Source of the DNA: an uncultured Alphaproteobacteria bacterium
GTDB lineage: Bacteria > Pseudomonadota > Alphaproteobacteria > Rhizobiales > Beijerinckiaceae
Direction: 5' to 3'
Assembly (NCBI GenBank): GCA_963794155.1
Contig: CAWCCX010000006.1
Coordinates: forward strand, 2,187 to 66,186
Length of the DNA: 64,000 nt
The number at the start of each line of letters is the position of its first letter. The stretch's first letter is position 1. The notes under the pieces are model-generated. The model saw only the letters and a program-made list of their open reading frames with translations, had not been told where the DNA came from and searched no databases. Both the position numbers and the translations under genes were made by a program. Shown here in pieces: positions 3,186 to 31,390 of this stretch.

Positions 3186-5736
3186 GTGCCGGATGTGGGT
3201 GTCTTAAGCGGAATGCTCACCGTGAATGTTCGTAGTGACGAATCTCGTCTAGCTGGCGCGCCGGCGCATGGTGACACGACGATCCGGTTGTCCAACATTT
3301 CAAAATTCTATTCAGGCGTTCCCGCGCTGCTCGATGTAAGCGCTGAGTTCTACGAGGGCGAGGTTCACGCGATCCTCGGCGAGAACGGGGCCGGCAAGTC
3401 AACCCTCATCAATATCATTTCCGGCGCCCTACAGCCAGAACTGGGCGTGATCGAATTCGAGGGGAGTCGGGTTTCCTCGATGTCGCCGGAAACCGCCGCG
3501 TCGTTGGGCATATCGATTTCCTTTCAGCACCCGGCTGTGCTCGACGATCTCTCGGTGCTTGGAGAATTTCCAGGTCGCTCTTCCTCCGTCGTTGTTTGTC
3601 GGAAAGTCCGCACAGACCGTTGCACGAAATGCGCTCGACGCAGTCGGCCTGCGCCTCCCGTTGCGAACGCGCGCCGATGCGCTGACGGTCGCCCAAAAGC
3701 ACTTGCTCGAAATCGCCAAAGCTTTGGCGATCAAGCCGAAGGTGCTGATCCTCGACGAGCCAACGGCTTCCCTCGATCAAGCGGCGACCGATATGCTTTT
3801 TGACCGCATAAGGGAGGTGGTCAGGACAGGAACGTCGGTGATCTACATCACCCATCGCCTCGCGGAATTGCGTCAGATCGCCCAACGGGTCACGGTTCTT
3901 CGCGACGGTCGGGTTCAAGGCGTGAGGCTGGTCAACGAGGTAAGCGACGCCGAGCTTCTAAGCATGATCGTCGGGCGAACGCTGGGGTCGACGTTCCCGC
4001 AGAAGTCTCAAAATGTCTCGAAGGACATCAACTTTGCGGTCGAGTCGTTTAGCGGCAAGAGATTTACGGATGTGAGCTTTGAAGTGTCGCGGGGCCAAAT
4101 CGTGGGCGTCGCCGGTGTGGCGGGCAACGGCCAATCCGAGTTAATGCGCGCGCTGGCGGGCCTCCAACAATCCAAAGGCGCGATTCAACTCAATGGCCGC
4201 GCCCTCGATCATAGCGACCTTTTGCGCGAAGCAGCATTCATGCCTTCGGATCGGCATACCGAAGGTTTGGCCGCAAGCCTGACGGTGCGCGAGAACGCGA
4301 CATTTGCCGCTCTGGACAGGTTTGCCGCGTATGGACTGCTCAGCCGAAAGAGAGAAGTTGAACAGGTCGCGACGACGTTCAAGTCGCTGGCGGTCAAGAC
4401 GGCGAGCCTGGAAGCTCCGATCCTATCGCTTTCCGGCGGCAATCAACAAAAGGTCGTAATGGCCCGCGCCTTGCTGTCGGAACCCAAACTTATCGTCGCC
4501 GACGAACCGACCCAGGGAGTCGATGTTGGCGCGCGCGCTGAGATCTATCGTATTTTGCGCGAAGTATCGAGTTCGGGCACGCCAGTCATCGTCAATTCTT
4601 CGGACGCGGCGGAGCTTGAAGGGTTGTGCGACCAAGTCATTGTCATGTCGCGGGGGCGCGTCGTCGCAAAGCTGAGCGGCGACGAAGTCTTGGAGGCCAG
4701 GATCGTCGCCGCCGCTGTCAAAGCCGACACCCACGTCGGCGACTCCGGCTTGCAGGACCGCGTCGCTTCGAGGAGCAGCGGATGGCGGCACTTTCTGCAA
4801 TCGGACAACGCGCCAGCCGTTCCCCTGGCTCTTGTCACCAGTCTGCTCGGGCTCTACGTTTTCGGCCAAAATCCCAACTTTCTGTCGGCGTTCAATATCT
4901 CCAACATCCTCCTGTTGGCGACCGCGTTGGGCTTCATCGCGCTCGGGCAAACCGTCGCGCTGTTGATGGGTGGAATTGACTTGTCGGTTGGCCCGCTCGC
5001 GGGTTTTCTGGTCGTGGTCGCCTCGTTCTTCGTGAACGATGGCAAGTCTCCATCGGTGATCGCCGCAGGCTTCCTCTTGATGTTCGGCGGCGCGTTCGTC
5101 GTCGGCGCGATCAACGGACTTCTCATAAGATTTGCGAATTTCACTGCGATTGCCGCGACGCTGGCGATGTATATCGGCCTTCAGGGGATGAGCTTCCTGT
5201 TGCGTGATGGCCCGGGCGGATACATCAACGCCGCTGTCGCTGACGTCATCAACAGGCTGTATGGGCCGATACCCCTGGCGTTTCTGGTCTTGGTCGCTTT
5301 CGCCGTTGCGGGCGAATACGCGTTGCGGAGCTCGCGGCTCGGCTGGCAGCTTCGGGCGATAGGCTCCGATGAGGAATCGGCGCGGCGGATCGGCGTTCGG
5401 ATCGATCGCACGTTCGTCGCCGGCTATATCGCTTCGTCGCTGTTGACGGCGTTTGGCGCCGTCATGCTGTTCGGCCAGATCGGGGTCGGCGATCCCAGGC
5501 AAGGCGCGAACTATACGCTGTCGAGCATCACCGCGGTCGTGCTTGGCGGAACGAGCCTGCGCGGCGGACGTGGAACGTTCATCGGCACAGTGCTCGGCGC
5601 GCTCCTACTGACGGAAGTTCTCAATGCCGCCACCTTTCTTGGTCTGTCTGAAACCTATCAATACGTGTTTCAAGGCATTCTCGTCCTGATCGCCGCCCTG
5701 ATTTATTCGACGGTGCGTGGGCGGGGCCCAGCTTGA
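3186..5736 (+). CDS. Fused sugar ABC ATP-binding (two NBDs) + permease protein, +1 frameshift at 3561-3562
   Basis: Walker A GENGAGKST, ILDEP, LSGGNQQK and ADEPTQG, followed in frame by a permease (GGIDLSVG, VVLGGTSLRGGRG). Start codon uncertain (3186 GTG or 3213 ATG). Confidence 0.88.
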
Positions 5737-12699: not shown

Positions 12700-13911
12700 A
12701 TGATACCACCCAGAAGTACGGTTGCGGCCGATCAGCAATCGGAGCGACGGCGGCCGGAGCGAGCCTGGACGAGGCGTGAGTACAAAGGGCGAAAAAAGCC
12801 GCTGCACCGGCTGCTGATTGTCTCGATAGCCGCGGTTGTGCTGCTGGCGGGCGGCGGAATAGCTGCCCCCAGCACCGTCTCGGTCAGCGCGATGCAATCG
12901 ATGCTGCCGTTCTTCGCGATCCTTGCGGTCGCGTCGATCGGCCAGCATCTCGTGGTCCAGCAGCGCGGACTCGACCTGTCGGTCGCCGGCGTCATGTCGT
13001 TTGCGGCAGTCATCGTCTCGGCGCTGCCGAGTTCAGAGGCTGGAGTCCCCGAGACCCTGGCCTTCGTCGTGCTCGCGCTCGCGATGGGGCTCGGCGTCGG
13101 CGCCGTCAATGGCGCCATCGTCGCGCTGCTGCGCGTCAACTCGCTGGTCACCACCATCGGCATGAATTCGCTGATGCTGGGGATCACCATGCATGTCACC
13201 AGGGGATTCTCGCAGCAGGCGCCCCCGCCGCTCAACAAGTTCGGCGTCGGTAAACTCCTCGGCGTGCCGCTGACGCTCTACGTGATGATCGTCATCGCCG
13301 CGATCGCGATCTTTGTCCTGGAGAAAACGACTGTCGGGCGGCGGTTCATTGCGACCAGCGTAAATCCGGACGCAGCGCTTACCGTGGGCATCCGGCTCGA
13401 CTGGTATCGCGTTGCCACCTACGCGGTTGCCGGCTTCTGCTACGCGGCAGCGGGAATACTGCTGGCGGGCTATGTGCTGTCACCAACGGTGTTCAGCGGA
13501 ATGCCCTATTTGCTGGCAACAGTTGCGGCGGTCGTGGTGGGCGGCAATCCCATTGGCGGCGGCCTCCGCGGCAGCGTTGCCGCGACCATAGTGGGCGCGC
13601 TGCTCCTCACATATCTTGGCCAGCTCGTGCTCGCCGTTGGCTTCGCGACGTCGGCCCAGAACATCGTTCAGGCCATCATCATTATCGCCAGCGTCGGCAT
13701 TGTCGAGGCTGGCCGACGCCTTCGCTTCGAATGGATCCGCTTTAAATTCTGGGTAACCTCGCCTGACGTCGAGTTCCGCGTCCGCACGACGTTCACCCGC
13801 ATGATGACCCGCCTCGGACTTTCCAGATTGCTGAACGTGGCACCGGAGGTCAGATGGCGTTGGGGTGCTGCCTACGCCCGACTGAAGAAGCGACTCGAAA
13901 TCACAGAATGA
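12700..13911 (+). CDS. Sugar-type ABC transporter permease with C-terminal extension
   Basis: QRGLDLSVAG, GRRFIATSVNP, AAVVVGG. Stop overlaps the next ATG (ATGA at 13908-13911). Confidence 0.85.
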   Translation: MIPPRSTVAADQQSERRRPERAWTRREYKGRKKPLHRLLIVSIAAVVLLAGGGIAAPSTVSVSAMQSMLPFFAILAVASIGQHLVVQQRGLDLSVAGVMSFAAVIVSALPSSEAGVPETLAFVVLALAMGLGVGAVNGAIVALLRVNSLVTTIGMNSLMLGITMHVTRGFSQQAPPPLNKFGVGKLLGVPLTLYVMIVIAAIAIFVLEKTTVGRRFIATSVNPDAALTVGIRLDWYRVATYAVAGFCYAAAGILLAGYVLSPTVFSGMPYLLATVAAVVVGGNPIGGGLRGSVAATIVGALLLTYLGQLVLAVGFATSAQNIVQAIIIIASVGIVEAGRRLRFEWIRFKFWVTSPDVEFRVRTTFTRMMTRLGLSRLLNVAPEVRWRWGAAYARLKKRLEITE

Positions 13912-16424
13912 AGGCCGCCAAACGAAATCTACTTGGCGCCCCAGTCATGGGGATCGTGGGGGCAACCAAATATTACGGCCCCGTGCAGGCGCTCAAGGGC
14001 GTCAACCTCACCATCCGGCGCGGCCAGGTGCACGCCGTCGTCGGCGAGAATGGCGCGGGAAAATCGACACTCATTGGCATCGCCGCCGGCGCCGTGCCGC
14101 CCGACTTCGTGGTCCTTCGTGTCGCCGGCAAGGAGATCAAGCGTCCCAACGCCAGGAAGCTGCATCGCGCTGGCGTGGCCGTCACCTTTCAGCACCCCGA
14201 GTTGGCCGAAGAAATGACGGTCATGGAGAACATTCAGCTCGCAGCGCCCCAACTGACCGGGCGCGGTAGCCGGGCAGAGGCACAGCGGCTCCTGGCGTCT
14301 GTGGGATCCGAACAGCACTTCATGTCATTGGACGCGAGGGTCCGCGACCTGACGCTCGCACAGCAACATATCATCGAGATCGCGAGCGCCATCGCTGCAA
14401 AGCCCAGGGTTCTCTTTCTGGACGAGCCGACCGAGCCGTTTCAGCAGGCCGATGTCGACAAACTATTCGAGCTCATCAGGCAGTTGCGTGAGGAAGAGGT
14501 AGCGATCGTCTACGTCTCGCACCGGCTGCACGAAATCGAACAGCTTGCTGACTACGTAACCGTGCTGCGCGATGGCCGGTCCATCGACAGCCGCCCCGCA
14601 GCGCGGATCACGACGGGCGAAATCATCAGCATGATCGCGGGCCGCCCCCTCGACCAGGTGTTTCCCAGCAAGATGCAAAACCGAGGCGAGCTCAAGCTTG
14701 AGGTCAAGGACCTTTCGGCGGCCGGCTTCGCGAGGATCAATTTTTCCGCCTACGCCGGCGAGATTGTCGGTGTAACCGGGGTCGAAGGAGAGGGTCAGCG
14801 CGAATTTCTGCGTACCGTGGCGGGCCTCGAGCGTCGCAAGAGCGGATCGGTGCGGATCAAGGGTAAGCTCGTCGAGGGCACGTCCGCCGCCGCCGCCCGC
14901 GGCGCCGGAATCGGTTTTGTTACGGATGACCGTCACGAAGAAGGTCTCTTCCTGACCTTGAGATTGCGCGACAACATCGGCATCGGCGCGCTCGACCGGA
15001 TTTCGACCGCTGGCGTGATCGACCGGAAGCGCGACTACGCCTTGACCAGGGAAGTGATGGAACGGCTCGGCATCTACACCGGCTATCGCATCAAGGAGCA
15101 CGACGACACGACGGCTGCGGAGCTGTCTGGCGGCAACCAGCAGAAGACGCTGATCGGACGCGAAATCGCAGGCGACCCCGAGGTCATCCTTATCGACGAG
15201 CCGACTAAGGGCGTCGATGTCGGCGCGCGCACCGAAATCTACGAACGCCTACGGGAACTGGCGGTCAACGGTGTCGCGATGGTGGTGTCGTCGTCCGACG
15301 GCATTGAGCTTGCGGGGCTGTGCGACCGGGTTGTCGTGTTCGCGCGTGGCCAGATCGTGAAAGAGCTTGAAGGCAAGTCCCTTACCGACGCGGCCATCAC
15401 CGAAGCGAACATGACCGCCAGGGTGGCGCGCGAAGGCGGCCCGACCCGCAAGGAAAAGGAAGACGAGGGCTGGCGCCGCATCATGGCCGCTGACTGGTTC
15501 CCGGCAGCAGTGCTGGCCGTGCTGACCGCCATCGTCCTGTTCGGCACCGATTCGATCAGCGAGTATTTCCTCTCGGCCTTCAATATCGAGACCATGCTGA
15601 CCTTCCTTTCGATCCTGGCATTCATCTCGATCGCCCAATTGGGCACTATCCTGGTCGGCCGGATCGATCTCTCGGTAGGCGCTCTGGCCGGATTCGTCGT
15701 CGTGCTAGCATCGTTCCTGACGCCCGATGGCGGGTCGGCTGCCAATGCTCTGCTGGGTTCGGTGCTGATCCTTGCAATCACCGCCACCTTCGGACTGGTC
15801 CAGGGCTGGTTGGTCACCTGGCTCAACATCCCCGCGATCGTGGTGACGCTCGCCACCTTCATCGGCTTGCAAGGGCTGTCCCTTGAATTGAGGCCGGAGG
15901 CGGCCGGCGCCGTCACGGACTACCTCTCCGATGCGACGCAGTGGACGGTTGCCGGGATGCCCGCCTGCTTCCTCGCCGTCCTGGTCATCGTGGCTACGTT
16001 TGAATATGTCCTGTTCCGCACCGGGCTCGGGCGGCGGCTTCGCGCCGTAGGATCCAATCCGCTCGGCGCGACTCGGGTCGGCATTCGGGTCAACCGGCAA
16101 ATTCTGCTGGCTTTCTTTCTGTCCGGATTGCTGAGTGGCATCGCTGGTCTCATTCTCGCGGGGCAGGTCGGCATCGGTTCGCCCGCCACCGGAATTGACT
16201 ACACGCTGATGAGCATCACCTCCGTCGTGCTCGGTGGCACGAGAATCGCCGGCGGGCGCGGCTCGGTCCTGTCCGTCTTGATGGGCGCGGCCCTTGTGCA
16301 ATCGCTGTCGAGCGCGTCGTCCTTCATCAATCAGGATTTCGCGATCCATCTGATCGTGCTCGGTGCAGTCACGATGGTTGCCGCCACCTTCTTCAGCGTC
16401 GCACGGCGCGAGAGAACCGGGTAG
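13908..16424 (+). CDS. Fused sugar ABC ATP-binding + permease protein (second copy)
   Basis: GENGAGKST, FLDEP, LSGGNQQK and IDEPTKG, then permease GRIDLSVG, VVLGGTRIAGGRG in one uninterrupted frame. Confidence 0.9.
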   Translation: MKAAKRNLLGAPVMGIVGATKYYGPVQALKGVNLTIRRGQVHAVVGENGAGKSTLIGIAAGAVPPDFVVLRVAGKEIKRPNARKLHRAGVAVTFQHPELAEEMTVMENIQLAAPQLTGRGSRAEAQRLLASVGSEQHFMSLDARVRDLTLAQQHIIEIASAIAAKPRVLFLDEPTEPFQQADVDKLFELIRQLREEEVAIVYVSHRLHEIEQLADYVTVLRDGRSIDSRPAARITTGEIISMIAGRPLDQVFPSKMQNRGELKLEVKDLSAAGFARINFSAYAGEIVGVTGVEGEGQREFLRTVAGLERRKSGSVRIKGKLVEGTSAAAARGAGIGFVTDDRHEEGLFLTLRLRDNIGIGALDRISTAGVIDRKRDYALTREVMERLGIYTGYRIKEHDDTTAAELSGGNQQKTLIGREIAGDPEVILIDEPTKGVDVGARTEIYERLRELAVNGVAMVVSSSDGIELAGLCDRVVVFARGQIVKELEGKSLTDAAITEANMTARVAREGGPTRKEKEDEGWRRIMAADWFPAAVLAVLTAIVLFGTDSISEYFLSAFNIETMLTFLSILAFISIAQLGTILVGRIDLSVGALAGFVVVLASFLTPDGGSAANALLGSVLILAITATFGLVQGWLVTWLNIPAIVVTLATFIGLQGLSLELRPEAAGAVTDYLSDATQWTVAGMPACFLAVLVIVATFEYVLFRTGLGRRLRAVGSNPLGATRVGIRVNRQILLAFFLSGLLSGIAGLILAGQVGIGSPATGIDYTLMSITSVVLGGTRIAGGRGSVLSVLMGAALVQSLSSASSFINQDFAIHLIVLGAVTMVAATFFSVARRERTG

Positions 16425-16692: not shown

Positions 16693-17668
16693 CTAGGCTG
16701 ACGCATAACCTGCGCCAGTGAGATAGTTTGCGCATTCGTCTGGTGGGATGGTGGTGAGGGCTTGGGCGATGGCGTCGGAGACGGCGTCGAGGGTTCGGGG
16801 CGCGGTTTTTCGGACGAAGCCTTTGAGCTTGGCGAAGAGCTGCTCGATCGGGTTGAGGTCGGGTGAGTACTTGGGCAGGAACAGGAGACACGCGCCGGCG
16901 GCCTTGATCGCATTTCGCACGGCTTTGCCTTTGTGCGATCCCAGATTGTCGAGCACGACGATGTCGTTGCGCTTGAGGGTCGGAACCAGGAACTGTTCGA
17001 CGTAGGCGAGAAACCGCTCGCCGTTGATGGGACCGTCGAACACGCAGGGCGCGTCGATGCGGTCGTTGCGCAGCGCAGCCAGGAATGTCGCCGTCTTCCA
17101 GTGGCCGTGCGGGATCTTGGCGACGAGCCTGCGTCCGCGCGGCGCCCAGCCGTAAAGGCGGGTCATGTTGGTCTTGGTCCAGAGCCTGCCCTCGGGCTTG
17201 ACCCGAGGGTCACGTCGATGAAGACGAGACGCGAAGGATCGACGCGCTTCTGATGGCTTCGCCAGCGCCGGCGATGGCGCTTTATGTCGACACGATCCTG
17301 CTCGCGCGCGATGAGCGTCTTTTTTTGAGCGCGACGCCAATGCGGCGGAAGAAGCGGCTCATCATCGCCGTGTCGGCTCGCACCCCACGCTCCGCCAGCA
17401 ACCGGTCGCAAAGCGCCTGCAGGGTGATGTCGGATTTCTCTGCTCGCAGCGCTTCGAGAAACTCACGGTGCGGCTCAAGTCTCGGACGCAGATAACCGCC
17501 CATCTTGCTCGCCGCCCGCGAACCGCTCCGCTCGAAGCGCTGCACCCACTTGATCGCCGAGGACTCGCTCACCCCAAAGCAGGCCGCCGCCGCTCGCCGG
17601 CTCATCTTTCCCCGAACCACCGCGTCGATCACCCGGTCGCGCAAGTCTTGCGAATATGCACTGGCCAT
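16693..17668 (-). pseudogene. IS630 transposase (HTH orfA + DDE orfB via -1 frameshift), disrupted by a 26-nt insertion
   Basis: orfA MASAYSQDLRDRV; slippery A7G at 17319-17326; orf[32 protein letters not shown]. Insertion at 17182-17207 breaks the frame. Confidence 0.85.
17182..17209. repeat. REP-like palindromic element inside IS630 transposase
   Basis: CCCTCGGG-CTTGA-CCCGAGGG (8-bp stem, 5-nt loop), resembling the alphaproteobacterial CTCGGGCTTGACCCGAG repeat. Confidence 0.7.
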
Positions 17669-20331: not shown

Positions 20332-20850
20332 TCACTGTTTGCCGCCCTCGGTCAATGTGCCCACCCACTCCATGACATATTCTTTCTCCGAAATAGGCTT
20401 GGCCGTCCAAGTGCCCCTCAACTCAGCATTTGCCAGGCTGCCGGTCCCGCGAATCTGCTCCCAAGTTCCCAAGGCCGTCCATTCAGACTTTCCATTGACC
20501 ATCGTGGTCACCTGCGCTCCAGCATAACTTGTGACGCCCGTGCTTCCGTCCTTATATTTCGCCAGTTCGTAGCCGTGGATCATCCCGCTGCCTTTGACCA
20601 AATCGTCCGCTTCGACCCAAGTTTGCTGGCCGCCGTCGAACCTCGCGGACTGGCCTGTGGCGCTGCCGCTGCAGATCACCTTCTGCACCACCAGAACATG
20701 ATCCGGATCGCCTTCCACCGAAATCGCGTGCTGCTCAGCGGTTTTGCACGTGATCTCACCGGCTACCTGGATCGGTTCAGCTGCCCGTGCGAGTGCAGTT
20801 CCGAGGGTCAGCGCGGTTATGGTGAGGAGCGTGCCTGTGCGAGATCGCAT
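20332..20850 (-). CDS. Secreted hypothetical protein (predicted beta-rich)
   Basis: AAGGAGGAGG RBS, signal peptide MRSRTGTLLTITALTLGTALARA/AEP, closed 172-aa ORF. Confidence 0.7.
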   Translation of the reverse strand: MRSRTGTLLTITALTLGTALARAAEPIQVAGEITCKTAEQHAISVEGDPDHVLVVQKVICSGSATGQSARFDGGQQTWVEADDLVKGSGMIHGYELAKYKDGSTGVTSYAGAQVTTMVNGKSEWTALGTWEQIRGTGSLANAELRGTWTAKPISEKEYVMEWVGTLTEGGKQ

Positions 20851-21515
20851 CTTAAACCTCCCTCCTTTGCGTGGTCGGTTTTGTTAGGATGACCTGCGTT
20901 CTCGCGGTGGCGGCAAACGGCGTGGCGATGGCTAGGAGCGATCGAAATCTTCGGCCAAAACATTCTCGGCGCAACTACATGTATGCGCGCCGGTTTTCCG
21001 GCGACGCCAAACAGAATTCACCATGGCGGCGTAACGTTGTCGAACGAAAAGCGCGACAGGCCTGCGTTTCGTGTATCTTCAAGCTGCTGGAGCGCCTCGC
21101 GCAAAGTGTTCATCGACGCTGCGCGGTACCCTCGTTGGGACTGGGCGATGCGAGGTGGCGTTCAACGTTGAGGGTGTTGCTGGACATTGGGATTTCCCGT
21201 CGGAGCGACTATGCCGCTGTCAGTGGGAATGATCGTGCTTGTTATTTTCATGGCCATGGGCGCGGCGCCGATTCTGTGGGCCGGCGAGAGATCAGGTTCT
21301 AGTGCGGACCTATGCGGCGGGATCGGACCCCTGCCCGTCGAGGCGCTGAAGCTCAAATATCGGCGGCGCCAGACAAATCGTCGCGTGGCGCAGCCTTACT
21401 ATTTGCAAGCCCGCGGGGACTGTCCTCGAAACGTACGTCAACGTACGACGCCTTGTTTGCGGACCGCAAAGATGCGGATCGCAATCTCGATCCGCCTGCA
21501 TCTTGGAGATAGGTC

Positions 21516-23145
21516 ATGACGATCGGTCACGACATGACCCCGAGCATCGACCCTAGCCGGCAGAGAAGCACGGGGCCGGTGCGGACCAAGCGGCCGATCT
21601 ATGTCGATCTCCTGCCGCCCTGCAATATCGCCTGCCCGGCCGGCGAGAACGTCCAGGCTTGGCTGGCGTTCGCCCAGGCCGCCAAGTTTCGAGAGGCCTG
21701 GGAGGCGCTCGTCCGGGACAATCCGCTGCCGGGCGTGCATGGCCGGGTCTGCTATCACCCGTGCGAAACGAGCTGTAATCGCAAGGACCTCGACTCTTCT
21801 GTCGGTATTCACGCAGTCGAACGCTTTTTGGGCGATCTCGCGGCGCAACACGAATGGCCGCTGCCCGTCGACGCGCCCCGCTCCGGCAAACGCGTGCTGG
21901 TGGTCGGGGCTGGTCCGAGTGGGCTCTCGGCTGCCTATCATCTGACGCGGCTTGGCCATCAGGTGGAGATCCACGAGGCAGGACCGCAGCCCGGCGGCAT
22001 GTTGCATTTCGGCATCCCCGCCTACCGGCTGCCGCGCGAGGATCTGATGAAGGAGATCCGCCAGATTGAGCGCATGGGCGTCGGGATAGTGGTCAATCAC
22101 AAAGTCGATGATGTTCTCGCCGAACAGGAAGCGGGTCAGTTCGACGCCGTCTTCATCGCAATCGGCGCCCATCTCTCCAAGCACGTGGACATTCCCGCGC
22201 GCGACGCGGTGAAGGTGCTCGATGCGGTGTCGTATTTGCACGATGTCGAGACCCACGAGGCGCCGTCGCTCGGCCGCCGCGTGGTGATCTATGGCGGAGG
22301 CAACACTGCCATGGATGCCGCCCGTACAGCGCGTCGCCTTGGCGCCGAGGAAGCGATGATTGTCTACCGTCGCGACCGGGCCCACATGCCCGCTCATGGG
22401 TTCGAGGCCGACGAAGCGCTGGCGGAGGGCATCAAGATCAAGTGGCTGACGTCGATCAAGGCGATCGACGGCGGTGATCTCACCGTCGAGGTAATGGAGA
22501 TTGACGCCGACGGCCGCGCCCAGCCGACCGGGCGAACTCGAGACGCTGAAAGCCGACGCAGTGGTGCTCGCCCTCGGACAGGAGGCGGACAGCGCCTTCC
22601 TGCGCAAGATCCCAGAGATCATTCACCAGGCCGACGGCACGGTGGTGGTCGGGCCGGACATGATGACGGCCAGGCGGGGGATCTTCGCCGGCGGCGACAT
22701 GGTGCCGACCGAGCGCTCCGTCACGGTCGCCACCGGACACGGCAAGAAGGCGGCGCACCACATCGACGCTTGGCTGCGCAGCAGCGTCTACAGCCGTCCC
22801 GCCAAGCACCCGACGGTCGACTTCGCCGGATTGAACCTGCCGATTTATGCGGACGCGATGCGCTCCACCGAACACGAGCTGCCCCTCGGAGCGCCTCGGG
22901 CCGGCTTCGATGAGGTGGTCGCCGGCCTGAGCGAGGCGGAGGCCCTGCACGAGGCCCGGCGCTGCCTCTCATGCGGCAATTGTTTCGAATGCGACAATTG
23001 CTTCGCCGCCTGTCCGGAGGACGCCATCTTCAAGCTCGGCCCGGGCCGCCGCTACGAGATCAAATACGCGCTCTGCACGGGCTGCGCGGTGTGCGTCGAG
23101 CAATGTCCCTGCCACGCCATGGAAATGATCCCCGAGCCGGCGTGA
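21516..23145 (+). CDS. GltD/PreT-like FAD/NAD(P)-binding oxidoreductase with C-terminal 2x[4Fe-4S] ferredoxin domain, +1 frameshift at 22530-22532
   Basis: PCNIACP, GRVCYHPCETSC, GAGPSG, FGIPAYRL, GGGNTAMD, AGGDM, CLSCGNCFECDNC and CTGCAVCVEQCP. Confidence 0.88.
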
Positions 23146-23192
23146 GGGAGCCCGCGCCGGCTTGCGGTCGGAATTCACAAGGAGAGCAAGTG

Positions 23193-26796
<3,604 letters not shown>

Positions 26797-26839
26797 CTGC
26801 GCGAGCACGAACTCCGAACGTTATGGTCGCGAGGATGTC

Positions 26840-27835
26840 ATGGATTTGACGACACGGTACATGGGCCTTGACCTAAAGAACCCTCTAGTCGCGTCCGCCT
26901 CGCCGCTTAACGCTGACCTCGGCAACCTAAAACGCCTCGAGGACGTCGGGACCGCGGCCGTGGTGCTTCCCTCTCTCTTCGAAGAGCAGATCGAGGCCGA
27001 GACTGCACGTTACGACCATCTGACCGGCGTGAACGCCGAAAGTTCGCCTGAAGCGCAGAGCTATTTTCCTGCACCGGCCGACTACAAGGTTGGCCCGCAG
27101 CAATATCTCGACCTTGTTCGCCGCGCGAGCGGCTCGCTCGACATTCCAGTCATCGCCAGCCTAAACGGCACGACCGACCATGGCTGGATTTCCTACGCCA
27201 AGTCGATCGAGGAAGCCGGCGCCGCTGGACTGGAGCTCAATGTCTACTTCATCCCCGCTAACCTTTCGATGACCGGTTACGACGTCGAGCAACGCTATCT
27301 AGACATCCTGAAATCGGTGCGGGCCATGGTCTCAATTCCGGTCGCGGTCAAACTCAGCCCTTATTTCAGCGCGGTCGGCAGCATGGCGCTGGCCCTCGAA
27401 CGGGCCGGCGCCGACGCCCTCGTGCTGTTCAATCGATTCTACGAGCCTGATCTCGACATCGCGCGCTTGCAGGTGCTGACCGACCTCAAGCTCAGCCAGC
27501 CGAACGAAATTCGCTTGCCATTGCTTTGGCTCGCCGTTCTCTCCGGCCGCGTAAAAGCCTCTCTCGCCGCTACGACGGGAGTCTCGTCTGCCGACGAGGT
27601 CGTGAAATACCTCCTTGTCGGGGCCGACGTCGTGATGACCACCTCGGCCCTTCTGCGTCACGGGGTGGACCACATGGCAGTCTTGATCGCAGGACTGGCA
27701 TCCTGGCTGCGATCGCGGGAGTTTGCTTCGGTCAATCAGATGCGCGGAATCATGAGTCAGGAGAGGATGCAGGATCCCCAAGCCTTCGAACGCGCCAACT
27801 ATATCAAGATCCTGCAGGGATATGTCGGCGGCTAG
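26840..27835 (+). CDS. Dihydroorotate-dehydrogenase-like FMN protein
   Basis: KNPLVASASPL, PSLFEEQI, PVIASLNG, PVAVKLSPY, LFNRFY. The active-site loop reads ELNVYFIP, without the DHOD S-C-P-N motif. Confidence 0.85.
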   Translation: MDLTTRYMGLDLKNPLVASASPLNADLGNLKRLEDVGTAAVVLPSLFEEQIEAETARYDHLTGVNAESSPEAQSYFPAPADYKVGPQQYLDLVRRASGSLDIPVIASLNGTTDHGWISYAKSIEEAGAAGLELNVYFIPANLSMTGYDVEQRYLDILKSVRAMVSIPVAVKLSPYFSAVGSMALALERAGADALVLFNRFYEPDLDIARLQVLTDLKLSQPNEIRLPLLWLAVLSGRVKASLAATTGVSSADEVVKYLLVGADVVMTTSALLRHGVDHMAVLIAGLASWLRSREFASVNQMRGIMSQERMQDPQAFERANYIKILQGYVGG

Positions 27836-27974
27836 TGGATCGAACCTAACATTTGAGTCTGGATGGGATTTTTGAACGAAGCCGCTACCGCGGCGCGCAC
27901 ATCGAGATTTTGTGAGGGTCTCCTGCCTGAGAGGATGTGGATGTTGAAGCCCATCCCTCAGACAGGAGTAGCCG

Positions 27975-28834
27975 ATGGCCCAGTTGAGCCCTCTTCGCCG
28001 CCGCATGATCGAGGACATGACCGTCCGTAACATGTCGCCGGCGACGCAGCGATCCTACGTCAGCGCGGTTTCGAAGTTCAGCCGGTATTTTGGCAAGTCG
28101 CCCGAGCAGCTGGATCTGGAAGACGTTCGCGCTTTTCAGGTCCATCTCGTCTCGACGGGCATCTCATGGCCGGTCTCAACCAGATCGTCTGCGCCTTACG
28201 CTTCTTCTACGGCATCACGCTCGGCGAGGCGAACGTTCCCGAGCGTATCCCCTATGCGCGCGAGCCGCGCAAACTGCCGGTTGTGTTGAGCGCCGACGAG
28301 GTGGTGCTGTTTCTGGAGTTCGTCTCGAGCCTGAAGAGCCGGGCGGCGTTGACCACGGCCTATGCGGCCGGGCTCAGGGCCTCGGAGGTCGCGGGGCTGA
28401 GAGTGGCGGACATCGACAGCACGCGGGGCGTGATCCTGGTCCGTCATGGCAAAGGCGCGAAAGATCGCAACGTGATGCTGTCTACGCAATTGCTCGGCAT
28501 TTTGCGCGCCTATTGGAGGCTCGCCCGGCCAACGATCTATCTCTTTCCCGGACGGGATGAAGAGCATCCGATTGATCCGACGGTGTTGCACGCTGCGTGC
28601 CGATCGGCGGTCAATGCCGCCGGGTTGACCAAGCGGGTCACGTTGCACACGTTGCGCCATAGCTTCGCGACGCATCTCTTGGAAAGCGGAACGGACATCC
28701 GGATCATTCAGGTTCTGCTCGGTCATAACAATCTGTCGTCGACGGCGCGCTACACGCAAGTCGCGACCCACACGATCCGGGCGACGCAGAGTCCGCTCGA
28801 TCGATTGTCGTTGGAGGTCATGCCGCCGGGATAG
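27975..28834 (+). CDS. Tyrosine recombinase/integrase with N-terminal SAM-like domain, -1 frameshift near 28170
   Basis: MAQLSPLRRRMIEDM N-domain; catalytic set GLRASE, HGKGAK, HTLRH, LGH, RYT intact. Confidence 0.9.
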
Positions 28835-28855
28835 ACGGGCGCTCCGGCGCTGGCA

Positions 28856-30088
28856 ATGGCACGCGCCGGAGCTTCCTTCGACCGACCGACAATCGAAGTC
28901 GCGGATATTCTGCGTCGCCATGGCGAGGCCTATCTTCGCGATCACGTCGGACATGTAGGGCGGACCGAGCAGCGCGTGATGAGCGCGATCGCGGCGTGCC
29001 GAACGGCGGCGCTCGGCGGCCATGTCGAAGCCTGCGACGATTGTGGCGCGACGCGCATCGCTTACAACTCGTGCCGCAATCGGCACTGCCCGAAGTGCCA
29101 AGGAGCGGCGCGGGCGCAATGGCTAGCCCACCGGCAGGCCGAACTGTTGCCGGTTCCCTATTTCCACCTCGTGTTCACGCTGCCCGCGCCGATCGCGGCT
29201 GTCGCCTTCCAGAATAAGAGCGCCGTCTATGCGATGCTGTTCAAGACCGCCATTGAGGCCGTGACCACGCTGGCCGCCAATCACCGCAGGCTCGGAGCGC
29301 GGATCGGCGGCCTGGCCATCCTGCACACTTGGGGGCAGGCGCTGACGCACCACCCTCACATCCATTGCGTCGTCCCCGGCGGCGGACTTTCCATCGACGG
29401 CTCCCGATGGATCGAGGCGCGCTCGAGCTTCTTTCTGGCCGTCAAGCCGCTCGCCCGGCTGTTCCGTCGCCTGTTCCTCGAACGCCTGCAAGCCGCCTTC
29501 GACGCGAAGGGCCTCGGATTCTTCGGTGATCTCGCCTATCTCGCCGATCGCGCCGCCTTCGCCGCACAGCTGGCTGCGGTGCGTCGCCTCGATTGGATCG
29601 TCTACGCCAAGAAGCCCCTTGGCGGACCCGCGCGAGTTCTCGCCTATCTCGGCCGCTACACCCATCGCGTCGCCATCGCCAACAGCCGCATCCAAGCCTG
29701 CGACGACGAACATGTCAGATTGACCTGGAAGGACTATCGCGAGGACGGCGCCGTAAAGACCATGAATTTGAAGCCCGACGAGTTCATCCGGCGCTTCCTG
29801 CTCCACGCCTTGCCCGACGGCTTCCATCGCATTCGTCACTTTGGATTCCTCGCCAATGGCCATCGAACCGAAAGGCTGGCCCTCTGTCGCTCGCTCCTGG
29901 CAAGCCAGGTCGAGCCGACAGCGCACGGAAAGGAAGAACCGGCCTCGCCCGAACCGGACAACAGTAACGGCGTCGATCCTCCGCCCTGTCCGGATTGCGG
30001 CGGGCCGATGAGGTTCGTCGCCGACCTTCCTCGTAGCGGCGAACGGCCTCGGTCCAAGACGTCGTCGTTTTGGTGCGATACTTCATGA
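28856..30088 (+). CDS. IS91-family (Y2 HUH) rolling-circle transposase
   Basis: CRTAALGG, CDDCG, SCRNRHCPKCQ zinc domain, HTWG..HPHIH HUH motif, YLGRY tyrosine pair, RIRHFGFLAN. Confidence 0.93.
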   Translation: MARAGASFDRPTIEVADILRRHGEAYLRDHVGHVGRTEQRVMSAIAACRTAALGGHVEACDDCGATRIAYNSCRNRHCPKCQGAARAQWLAHRQAELLPVPYFHLVFTLPAPIAAVAFQNKSAVYAMLFKTAIEAVTTLAANHRRLGARIGGLAILHTWGQALTHHPHIHCVVPGGGLSIDGSRWIEARSSFFLAVKPLARLFRRLFLERLQAAFDAKGLGFFGDLAYLADRAAFAAQLAAVRRLDWIVYAKKPLGGPARVLAYLGRYTHRVAIANSRIQACDDEHVRLTWKDYREDGAVKTMNLKPDEFIRRFLLHALPDGFHRIRHFGFLANGHRTERLALCRSLLASQVEPTAHGKEEPASPEPDNSNGVDPPPCPDCGGPMRFVADLPRSGERPRSKTSSFWCDTS

Positions 30089-30470
30089 GCGCCGCTGTGA
30101 CGATCCCGCCCACAATCACGGTTCGCGCCCTTTCCGTCACGCCAACAATCGGAGGCGGTCGAAACAACTTGAGCCCTCCCGAAGTCGCAGCGCTCATCAG
30201 ACGCTACTGGCGCGCACTTCCAGCCCATGCAAGCCCCGTTTCGCTGTCGGCCGCTCGCCAAACCCATCATGTTCGCCGCGCGTCGCAAGCCGAAGCGACG
30301 AAAGCGCGCTCGCGCCTTACACAAAGCCCATAGCGCCGCCAGCCAACCTCCCCGCGACTTCGTTCAATCCGGCTTCAATGAGGTAAGCTACCCTATGCTC
30401 GCAATGTTGCGCCGCGGACCTCACAGAAGCCTCTAATTCCCGACGCGGGCTCGCCGTGCGAATCTGCGCG

Positions 30471-31390
30471 ATGCGCGCTGGAAGATTGCTCTCCGTCTCG
30501 TCCGCCGATATTCGTCGGCTCAAAACCCTGGTTCAAGACCGCAACACGCCGCAGAAGCACGTCTGGCGGGCTGAAATCGTGCTGTTGACCGCCGGTGGCG
30601 TTGGCACAAATGCGATTATGTGGCGCACGGCCAAGTCGAAGACCTGCGTTTGGTGCTGGCAGGAGCGCTTTATCGAGGAGGGATTCGACGGACTGCTGCG
30701 CGCGTCCTGATGGCGAAGGCGGCCGGGCTCAGCGTCAGTTCGGTTCAACGCATCTGGCGCGCCCATGGTCCGCAATCGCACCGGACGCGCCAGTTCAAGC
30801 TGTCCAACGACCCGCGCTTCGTCGACATATTACGCGACGTCGTCGGACTCTATGTCGATCCGCCCGCACACGCCATCGTCCTGTCGGTCGACGAAAAGAG
30901 CCAGATTCAGGCGCTTGACCGCACCCAGCCCGGACTGCCGCTGGGGCGCGCCGGAACCATGACGCACGACTATGAGCTGCACGGCACGACGACGCTGTTC
31001 GCCGCGATGAATATCCTCGACGGCACGGTGATCGGCCGCAACATGCAGCGCCATCGCCATCAAGAGTTCATCCGTTTCCTCAATGTCGTCGAGAAACAGG
31101 TTCCCGTGGGAAAGACGATCCACGCGATCGTCGACAACTACGCCGCCCATAAGCATCCCAATGTTCGACAATGGCTCGAACGTCATCCGCGATGGACGTT
31201 CCACTTCACGCCGACATCCGCTTCCTGGCTCAACGCGGTCGAGGGCTTCTTCGCGACCCTCACCAAGCGGAGGCTCAAGCGTGGCGTCTTTCGCTCGGTC
31301 GCCGACCTACAAGCCGCAATCAACCGTTTCCTCGACGAGCACAATCAGCAATCCAGGCCCTTCACTTGGACCGCCGACCAGATCCACTAG
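30471..31390 (+). pseudogene. IS630 transposase remnant with internal deletions
   Basis: RAEIVLLTA..GTNAI HTH part, then a frame break, VDEKSQIQALDR, IVDNYAAHK, SASWLNAVE. C-terminus collapsed to WTADQIH*. Confidence 0.85.

Follow-up and report, generated by a model that had tools for sequence, protein, structure and literature searches.

A GltD-like and a dihydroorotate dehydrogenase-like gene flanking a pyruvate:ferredoxin oxidoreductase gene in an insertion-sequence-rich alphaproteobacterial region

In a 64,000-nucleotide stretch of DNA, here called the window (an uncultured soil alphaproteobacterium of the Beijerinckiaceae; assembly GCA_963794155.1, contig CAWCCX010000006.1, positions 2,187 to 66,186), three co-oriented genes occupy positions 21516-27835 of the plus strand. 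They encode, in order, a GltD-like iron-sulfur flavoprotein, a pyruvate:ferredoxin oxidoreductase (PFOR, nifJ) and a protein resembling dihydroorotate dehydrogenase (DHOD). PFOR is central to anaerobic and microaerobic carbon and redox metabolism, and free ferredoxin or flavodoxin is generally taken to be what it exchanges electrons with. The locus raises the question of what two proteins that recall the halves of dihydropyrimidine dehydrogenase (DPD; PreT/PreA) are doing on either side of a PFOR, and whether the cluster, two of whose genes are broken as assembled, is intact. On balance, and with modest confidence, we favour an intact, horizontally acquired PFOR operon in which an NADP flavoprotein and an older DHOD-like partner are independent modules; the frameshifts are very probably artefactual. 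The cluster's gene content and order, the protein domains and the unusual motif of the DHOD-like protein, all described in an original prediction made from the bare sequence, were recovered here; that prediction was right about gene content and positions and overlooked the two frameshifts in the flavoprotein and PFOR genes.

Distribution of the PFOR partners

A locus scan built on the DHOD-like alignment, with one genome per species, yielded 80 loci from at least 15 phyla. A PFOR gene lies directly 5' of the DHOD-like gene, on the same strand and less than 400 nt away, at 70 of 76 evaluable loci (92%), and in several lineages the PFOR stop codon overlaps the DHOD-like start. A GltD-like gene directly 5' of the PFOR is found less often (30/52 evaluable loci), the other 22 pairing a DHOD-like gene and a PFOR with no adjacent GltD-like gene. 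All-against-all clustering of the flanking open reading frames (ORFs) of 52 loci recovered no conserved neighbor beyond the PFOR, DHOD-like and GltD-like genes. Within a 301-genome sample of the phylum, every evaluable DHOD-like gene (15/15) comes after a PFOR. Co-conservation of the cluster, which the original prediction had named as a check on itself, is borne out by these counts and by two plasmids described below. Its framing of the flanking genes as a PreT/PreA-like pair is not, because the DHOD-like gene goes with PFOR while the GltD-like gene joins them at only some loci. The pairing is further countered by at least ten genomes of one family that carry two PFOR paralogues, one situated before a DHOD-like gene and the other after a GltD-like gene; five such paralogue pairs were confirmed on loci L096-L105 (genomes G009, G017, G037, G045 and G285). 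The locus counts and the separate paralogues lead us to regard the partners as PFOR modules in their own right and not as an obligate PreT/PreA pair. The five split-partner genomes are small (1.7-3.1 Mb), belong to the same phylum, and constitute a natural experiment that parts the two partners.

A FastTree phylogeny of 70 PFORs, most of them sampled via the DHOD-like gene, places 37 of the 38 GltD-linked sequences in one clade with Shimodaira-Hasegawa-like support of 100: the eight that have the GltD-like partner only, and 29 of the 30 that have both. The remaining PFOR with both partners (L038) falls just outside this clade, the PFORs with a DHOD-like partner only are scattered outside it, and phyla are mixed within clades. 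Our reading is that PFOR and the DHOD-like protein form an old core pair, that one PFOR lineage gained the flavoprotein in addition, and that each partner can work without the other. Protein fusions were sought among 68 long homologues, with no GltD-DHOD-like fusion found. Dozens of apparent PFOR-DHOD-like fusions (P0272-P0338) were rejected: their junctions are mostly Arg/Pro-rich and out of frame, and in most of them a Met of its own opens the DHOD-like part. These entries in public gene calls are read-through artefacts of frameshifted high-GC assemblies and were not taken as Rosetta-stone evidence.

The arrangement itself is already known, and the window is an ordinary further instance of it. 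Propionibacterium and Acidipropionibacterium carry a PFOR (nifJ) between genes annotated as 'glutamate synthase small chain-like' and 'dihydroorotate dehydrogenase' (McCubbin et al. 2020, PMC7650540). These are the same three gene families in the same arrangement as in the window, which differs in its alphaproteobacterial host and its IS-rich, apparently acquired setting (IS, insertion sequence). In Propionibacterium the partner genes are co-transcribed and co-regulated with PFOR, and their function has only been postulated, as a quinol-dependent bifurcating complex (PMC7650540). The nifJ operon of Synechocystis sp. PCC 6803 (TU3296, sll0741-sll0743-sll0744) likewise holds a PFOR followed by a gene annotated as DHOD (fumarate), sll0744, which is transcribed in one unit with nifJ and whose expression rises in dark microoxia (PMC11368403). 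The likeness to Synechocystis is one of annotation, and two cyanobacterial loci of our scan (L082 and L087) have the core pair; TU3296 differs from the window in listing no GltD-like gene and in having an extra small gene between PFOR and sll0744. The original prediction noted nifJ with a DHOD-like neighbor as known and did not name these two published cases. NCBI curated models exist for both partners (NF009410 and NF005741), and the literature searched yielded no work on what the DHOD-like partner does. New here are the diagnosis of the frameshifts as artefacts, the paralogue-based evidence that the partners are independent, and the PFOR tree. A DHOD-like protein that accompanies PFOR in at least 15 phyla without an assigned function represents a real gap, the more so as it occurs in model organisms: Synechococcus elongatus and Bacteroides thetaiotaomicron, from a control search, and Synechocystis, from the literature.

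Domains and motifs of the three proteins

The flavoprotein comprises an N-terminal two-cluster Fer4_20 domain (aa 34-113), a Pyr_redox_2 fold for flavin adenine dinucleotide (FAD) and NAD(P), and a C-terminal Fer4 dicluster (Fer4_21 and Fer4_7, aa 150-199 of the second frame piece). This last domain most resembles PorD, the delta subunit of 2-oxoacid:ferredoxin oxidoreductases (OFORs; TIGR02179 PorD_KorD, E 9e-11), and the cysteines of both its cluster motifs are invariant in 27 orthologues. The two frame pieces match the 566-position model NF009410/PRK12771, 'NAD(P)-binding protein', at 28-364 (482 bits) and 365-565 (241 bits); their sum of 723 bits exceeds the cut-off of 516, and the protein joins the family only when read across the artefactual frameshift. 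A YRR motif (within IVYRRDR) is present in the window protein and in 20 of the 27 orthologues. YRR binds the 2'-phosphate in NfnB and is associated with NADP(H) specificity in NfnB and DsrL-2 (PMC7596348), and its presence makes the NAD(P) coupling suggested in the original prediction plausible.

The domain order of the flavoprotein, a two-cluster N-terminal domain, an FAD/NAD(P) module, a linker and a two-[4Fe-4S] ferredoxin domain, is that of DsrL, and its YRR motif matches the NADP(H)-specific DsrL-2 type; the partner in the window is PFOR and not DsrAB (PMC7596348). Linkage of DsrL-like genes to pyruvate/ketoisovalerate oxidoreductase genes was noted and then set aside by the DsrL authors (PMC7596348). 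Unlike NfnB in NfnAB, the window flavoprotein has no NfnA partner (FAD plus [2Fe-2S]) beside it. The host genome encodes a second PRK12771-type flavoprotein (C6:166742-171234; 57% identical, 780 bits) beside genes for a multi-subunit OFOR with PorA/B/C-like subunits; that locus has no DHOD-like gene, which adds to the evidence that the partners are modular. More OFOR-like matches accompany a third and more divergent copy, at C6:137119-138885.

The PFOR has the domains POR_N, PFOR_II, POR, EKR, two Fer4 and TPP_enzyme_C. Its two frame pieces match TIGR02176 contiguously, at 3-455 (731 bits) and 453-1166 (933 bits), giving a full-length match in which the C-terminal piece alone exceeds the 911-bit cut-off.

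The third protein belongs to NF005741/PRK07565, 'dihydroorotate dehydrogenase-like protein' (456 bits against a cut-off of 303, residues 1-328 on positions 2-329). Its AlphaFold 2 model has a predicted local distance difference test (pLDDT) score of 92, and the best fold matches of this model are the flavin mononucleotide (FMN) domain of pig DPD and class-1 DHODs. In a profile alignment, its ELNVYFIP segment aligns with ELNISCPN of the L. lactis DHODB PyrD and ELNLSCPH of pig DPD, and both the catalytic Cys and the next Asn are replaced. Position 137, Phe in the window, is occupied by F, Y, S, R, L or V across 62 diverse family members (36-58% identity), and no column of this 62-member alignment holds a conserved Cys (at most 10 Cys per column). 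The protein thus departs from class-1 DHODs in the catalytic Cys (Cys130 in DHODA, Cys135 in DHODB) and resembles them in the barrel, with a Lys in strand 5, Asn in strands 4 and 6 and a Gly-rich phosphate loop; the corresponding flavin-barrel residues are kept in nearly all members (K171 in 62/62, N134 and N198 in 58/62 each, G247 in 61/62). It is very probably a flavin barrel.

Models of the pyrimidine enzymes score the DHOD-like protein far below their cut-offs: PyrD models NF005574 and TIGR01037 give 77 against 269 and 75 against 270 bits, and the PreA model NF006183 gives 79 against 335. Unlike PreA and the FMN part of DPD, the chain ends after the barrel, with no Fer4 match and no equivalent of Cys671. 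The missing catalytic Cys had been called from the window alone, and its absence proves family-wide; the attendant doubt about ordinary DHOD or DPD chemistry is well placed, such chemistry being unlikely, judging from the replaced catalytic-loop residues and the model scores. Elsewhere in the host genome, at C16:635210-637416, a GltD-like gene is followed at once by a PreA-like gene that scores only 74 bits with NF005741; this pair is probably the genome's ordinary PreT/PreA-type DPD.

The likeness of the cluster to DPD (the pig enzyme and E. coli PreT/PreA) lies in the domain inventory, which is the same and is here split as [I-II-III-V] + [IV]. This agrees with the earlier equation of the two partners with the halves of DPD, with the ferredoxin domain on the GltD-like chain. 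Placement of that domain on the GltD-like chain and not on the FMN chain is one difference from DPD; others are that the window FMN protein lacks the Cys671 equivalent and the pyrimidine-binding Asn, and that its gene comes after the PFOR.

Frameshifts and mobile DNA

As assembled, the flavoprotein gene changes frame near 22530 and the PFOR gene near 24590, each by +1, and both genes are split. The family models are contiguous over both breaks (364/365 in the flavoprotein, about 451/453 in the PFOR), and removal of one base per site gives gapless end-to-end alignments to orthologues. With base 22535 deleted, the flavoprotein aligns without gaps to those of loci L016, L018 and L026, and has 542 aa against 543 in an orthologue, with 78% identity; the corrected PFOR has 1200 aa against 1199, with 80% identity, and its corrected site reads YFVYDSHKSGAQT as the orthologues do. 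Besides the two extra bases, neither gene contains stops or other lesions.

The whole genome (5.8 Mb, 24 contigs) was scanned by codon bias for same-strand frame jumps, with the requirement that the upstream ORF run on without a stop for 60 nt or more. The scan flagged 177 frame switches (143 of +1, 34 of +2), distributed over nearly all contigs and in some genes occurring twice; within the window only the switch at 22529/22530 was flagged. Of the 143 switches of +1, 97 have a GANTC hexamer with one duplicated base (GAACTC, GAGTTC, GAATTC, GATTTC and similar) within 20 nt, where the background rate is 15.7% (binomial p = 2.6e-44), and the 34 +2 switches show no like enrichment for GANNTC. Both frameshift sites of the cluster are of this type. 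GANTC is the CcrM methylation site of Alphaproteobacteria, and an insertion bias at a methylated motif has the look of systematic long-read base-calling error. Contigs of four soil-metagenome runs, laid on 22300-24800, have exactly one base fewer at 22534/22535, in every contig that spans this site, and at 24590, in all four runs, and one contig of run X1 without the extra base at 24590 is otherwise identical to the window over 24563-24800; these contigs come from other soil samples and show that relatives lack the extra bases. The genome-wide signature, the metagenome contigs and the single-base repair of the alignments together make it very likely that both frameshifts are assembly artefacts and not gene decay. 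The signature also argues against programmed or otherwise real frameshifts. Apparent pseudogenes in this assembly need to be checked for the GANTC signature, since one-base insertions mimic pseudogenes.

Mobile DNA adjoins the 3' end of the cluster. IS630-type inverted ends at 27832-27841 and 31381-31390 enclose 3.5 kb, and the CTAG target of this insertion contains the TAG stop of the DHOD-like gene. Since the target supplies the stop codon, the DHOD-like protein is intact, and whatever came after it in the operon was cut off. Nested within the insertion is an element with an integrase and an IS91 (Y2) transposase (27872-30440), of which 15 more copies (~99.4-99.8% identity) are spread over 12 contigs of the genome; their near-identity suggests that the element was recently active. 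An IS630 fragment also lies 5' of the cluster, at 16693-17340. At C13:355766-356645, a truncated copy of 880 bp repeats the 3' part of the DHOD-like gene (95.6% nucleotide identity); it is split in two frames and has no PFOR or GltD-like gene adjoining. Neither the PFOR nor the DHOD-like gene was found in any of 12 sampled genomes of the same family, and the best DNA matches in a plasmid collection are plasmids of Methylovirgula (pHY1) and Phenylobacterium zucineum, on which the three genes are intact and in the same order. The mobile DNA setting, the absence from the 12 family genomes and the plasmid-borne best matches indicate that the cluster was very probably acquired horizontally.

Proposed electron route, rival readings and minor features

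In the scheme that we propose, PFOR oxidises pyruvate to acetyl-CoA and CO2 and passes the electrons through its three [4Fe-4S] clusters. The flavoprotein may dock its PorD-like ferredoxin domain onto PFOR, in which case electrons could travel from the PFOR clusters through this domain, the N-terminal clusters and FAD to NADP+ with no free ferredoxin; the path would be reversible in principle, delivering NADPH for pyruvate synthesis. So understood, the flavoprotein would be a bacterial counterpart of the NAD(P)-linked 2-oxoacid oxidoreductases with a GltD-like subunit. The DHOD-like protein, apparently the older and more faithful partner of PFOR, may provide a second, FMN-based electron outlet or inlet. 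The analysis shows which genes are present, their domains and motifs, their co-conservation and modularity, and the status of the frameshifts as artefacts. We infer the NADP route from the DsrL/NfnB architecture, the YRR motif and the known GltD-like subunits of OFORs; likewise proposed are contact between the proteins, the way the electrons run, and what the DHOD-like protein uses as cofactor and acceptor. A ferredoxin-independent route from pyruvate to NADPH, as the NADP-type flavoprotein suggests, would bear on metabolic models and engineering.

Precedents exist for coupling 2-oxoacid oxidation to nicotinamide nucleotides. In the 2-oxoglutarate:NADP+ oxidoreductase (KGOR) of Azoarcus evansii and in the phenylglyoxylate:NAD+ oxidoreductase PadEFGHI, a GltD/NfnB-family subunit lets an OFOR reduce NAD(P)+ directly. 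The window cluster is likened to these enzymes by subunit family only, and they differ from it in being multi-subunit OFORs with no DHOD-like subunit. The pyruvate:NADP+ oxidoreductase of Euglena and Cryptosporidium is a PFOR fused to NADPH-cytochrome P450 reductase, in which PFOR electrons reach NADP+ via FMN and FAD; its flavin modules are unrelated to those of the window (flavodoxin-like for FMN, FNR-like for FAD), lie on one chain and come without extra iron-sulfur clusters. KGOR-alpha has been listed among the GltD/NfnB/DsrL relatives (PMC10134865).

Several points weigh against the operon of independent modules that we favour. Binding among the three proteins is a prediction. PFOR has its own ferredoxin domain, which leaves no obvious need for further flavin and clusters in reducing NADP+; seven of the 27 flavoprotein orthologues lack YRR, and nucleotide preference may vary by lineage. 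FMN binding by the DHOD-like protein is predicted from conserved motifs, and the Lys that contacts flavin N5 in DHOD and DPD is not conserved, position 44 being Pro here. As the loci were sampled through the DHOD-like gene, PFORs without a partner or with the GltD-like partner only are under-sampled in the tree. The case for artefactual frameshifts draws on genome-wide statistics and contigs from other samples, and in run X1 part of the depth at 24590 is without the deletion.

Among the alternatives, it is conceivable, if doubtful, that the DHOD-like protein is a stoichiometric, so far overlooked component of the single-chain PFORs of most bacteria. Through its altered FMN site, electrons would then leave PFOR directly and without ferredoxin, perhaps for a small acceptor such as a quinone-like compound, or by way of a safety valve that lets the enzyme go on working in bacteria exposed to oxygen; the NADP flavoprotein would have come later, in one clade, followed by horizontal spread. 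A domain-shuffled DPD complex in the sense of the original prediction, with a wire from NAD(P)H through FAD and four [4Fe-4S] clusters to FMN and a PFOR that feeds or drains it as part of a three-component machine, we consider unlikely. The GltD-like and DHOD-like proteins do together carry all five DPD domains, the FMN domain of pig DPD is the best fold match of the DHOD-like model, the FMN barrels of glutamate synthase and DPD receive their electrons from GltD-type subunits, and 29 PFORs of one clade retain both partners. Set against this are the 22 loci where the DHOD-like gene and PFOR occur with no adjacent GltD-like gene, the genomes whose partners sit at different PFOR paralogues, the nesting of GltD-only PFORs within the both-partner clade, and the lack of any fusion of the two partners among the long homologues. 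If such a heterocomplex exists, it would be in clusters that have both partners. Electron confurcation or bifurcation, in which NAD(P)+ at the NfnB-like subunit would be reduced by PFOR clusters together with a quinol that acts at the DHOD-like subunit, is less likely than such a heterocomplex, and in our view improbable. It has been published as a hypothesis for Propionibacterium (PMC7650540), and the flavoprotein is related to NfnB, which has a bifurcating FAD. The distribution data do not favour it, the partners also occurring apart; the DHOD-like protein is a soluble barrel of 331 aa with no membrane- or quinone-binding N-terminal domain of the class-2 type, and no NfnA-like partner is adjacent.

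The reading of the locus as a decaying remnant in an IS-rich island, its frameshifts real, is also improbable. Two of three genes are broken as assembled, the region is rich in IS630 and IS91 with an IS at the very stop codon, a truncated duplicate lies on C13, and the cluster was not found in the 12 family genomes; yet about 100 other genes, spread over all contigs and in several cases affected twice, bear the GANTC+1 signature. Natural decay does not look like this surplus of insertions over deletions (143:34), the genes show no other lesions and 78-80% full-length identity to orthologues, and the extra bases are missing from environmental contigs, one of which otherwise matches the window exactly. 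The idea that the DHOD-like protein acts in pyrimidine metabolism as a normal DHOD or PreA and neighbors PFOR by chance is scarcely credible. A Pfam DHO_dh match and the source annotations 'dihydroorotate dehydrogenase (fumarate)' suggest it, against the family-wide replacement of the catalytic Cys/Ser and the adjacent Asn, PyrD and PreA scores far below cut-off, the separate PreT/PreA-like pair on C16 of the same genome, and the adjacency to PFOR across phyla.

Coordinates of the cluster, its motifs and the flanking insertion in the window
Feature	Position	Strand	Remarks
GltD/DsrL-like iron-sulfur flavoprotein gene	21516..23145	+	two frames as assembled: 21516-22534 and 22531-23145
C-terminal 2x[4Fe-4S] ferredoxin domain of the flavoprotein	22978..23127	+	Fer4_21 + Fer4_7; PorD/delta-subunit-like
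Frameshift site 1, GAACTC	22534..22539	+	GACTC (CcrM GANTC) plus one base
PFOR (nifJ) gene, single polypeptide	23193..26796	+	TIGR02176; two frames as assembled
Frameshift site 2, GATTTC	24586..24591	+	GATTC (GANTC) plus one T
DHOD-like protein gene, predicted FMN barrel	26840..27835	+	NF005741/PRK07565; intact, 331 aa
ELNVYFIP, residues 132-139 of the DHOD-like protein	27233..27256	+	in place of the ELN-x-S-C-P-N catalytic loop
Left end of the IS630-type insertion, CTAGTGGATC	27832..27841	+	
Right end of the IS630-type insertion, GATCCACTAG	31381-31390		

The flavoprotein gene starts at ATG 21516, with a Shine-Dalgarno sequence (GGAGA) at 21505-21509, and ends 47 nt before nifJ. The PFOR starts at ATG 23193, preceded by AGGAGA at 23180, and the ORF start at 22971 is not the true one. 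Just 5' of the flavoprotein start, at 21455-21500, are two short inverted repeats, TTGCGGACCGCAA and GATGCGGATCG..CGATCCGC..GCATC, which may be regulatory and do not fit the 5-4-5 spacing of FNR/FixK sites. A promoter and terminator scan of 20800-28000 gave nothing exceeding shuffled expectation. As for an NfnA partner, the window genes 5' of 21516 have no Pfam match. Further upstream, two long ORFs at 13854-16424 and 3559-5736 join a double ABC ATPase to a permease (ABC_tran x2 + BPD_transp_2, one in an 856-aa frame); given the insertion artefact in this assembly, these ATPase-permease fusions deserve a check.

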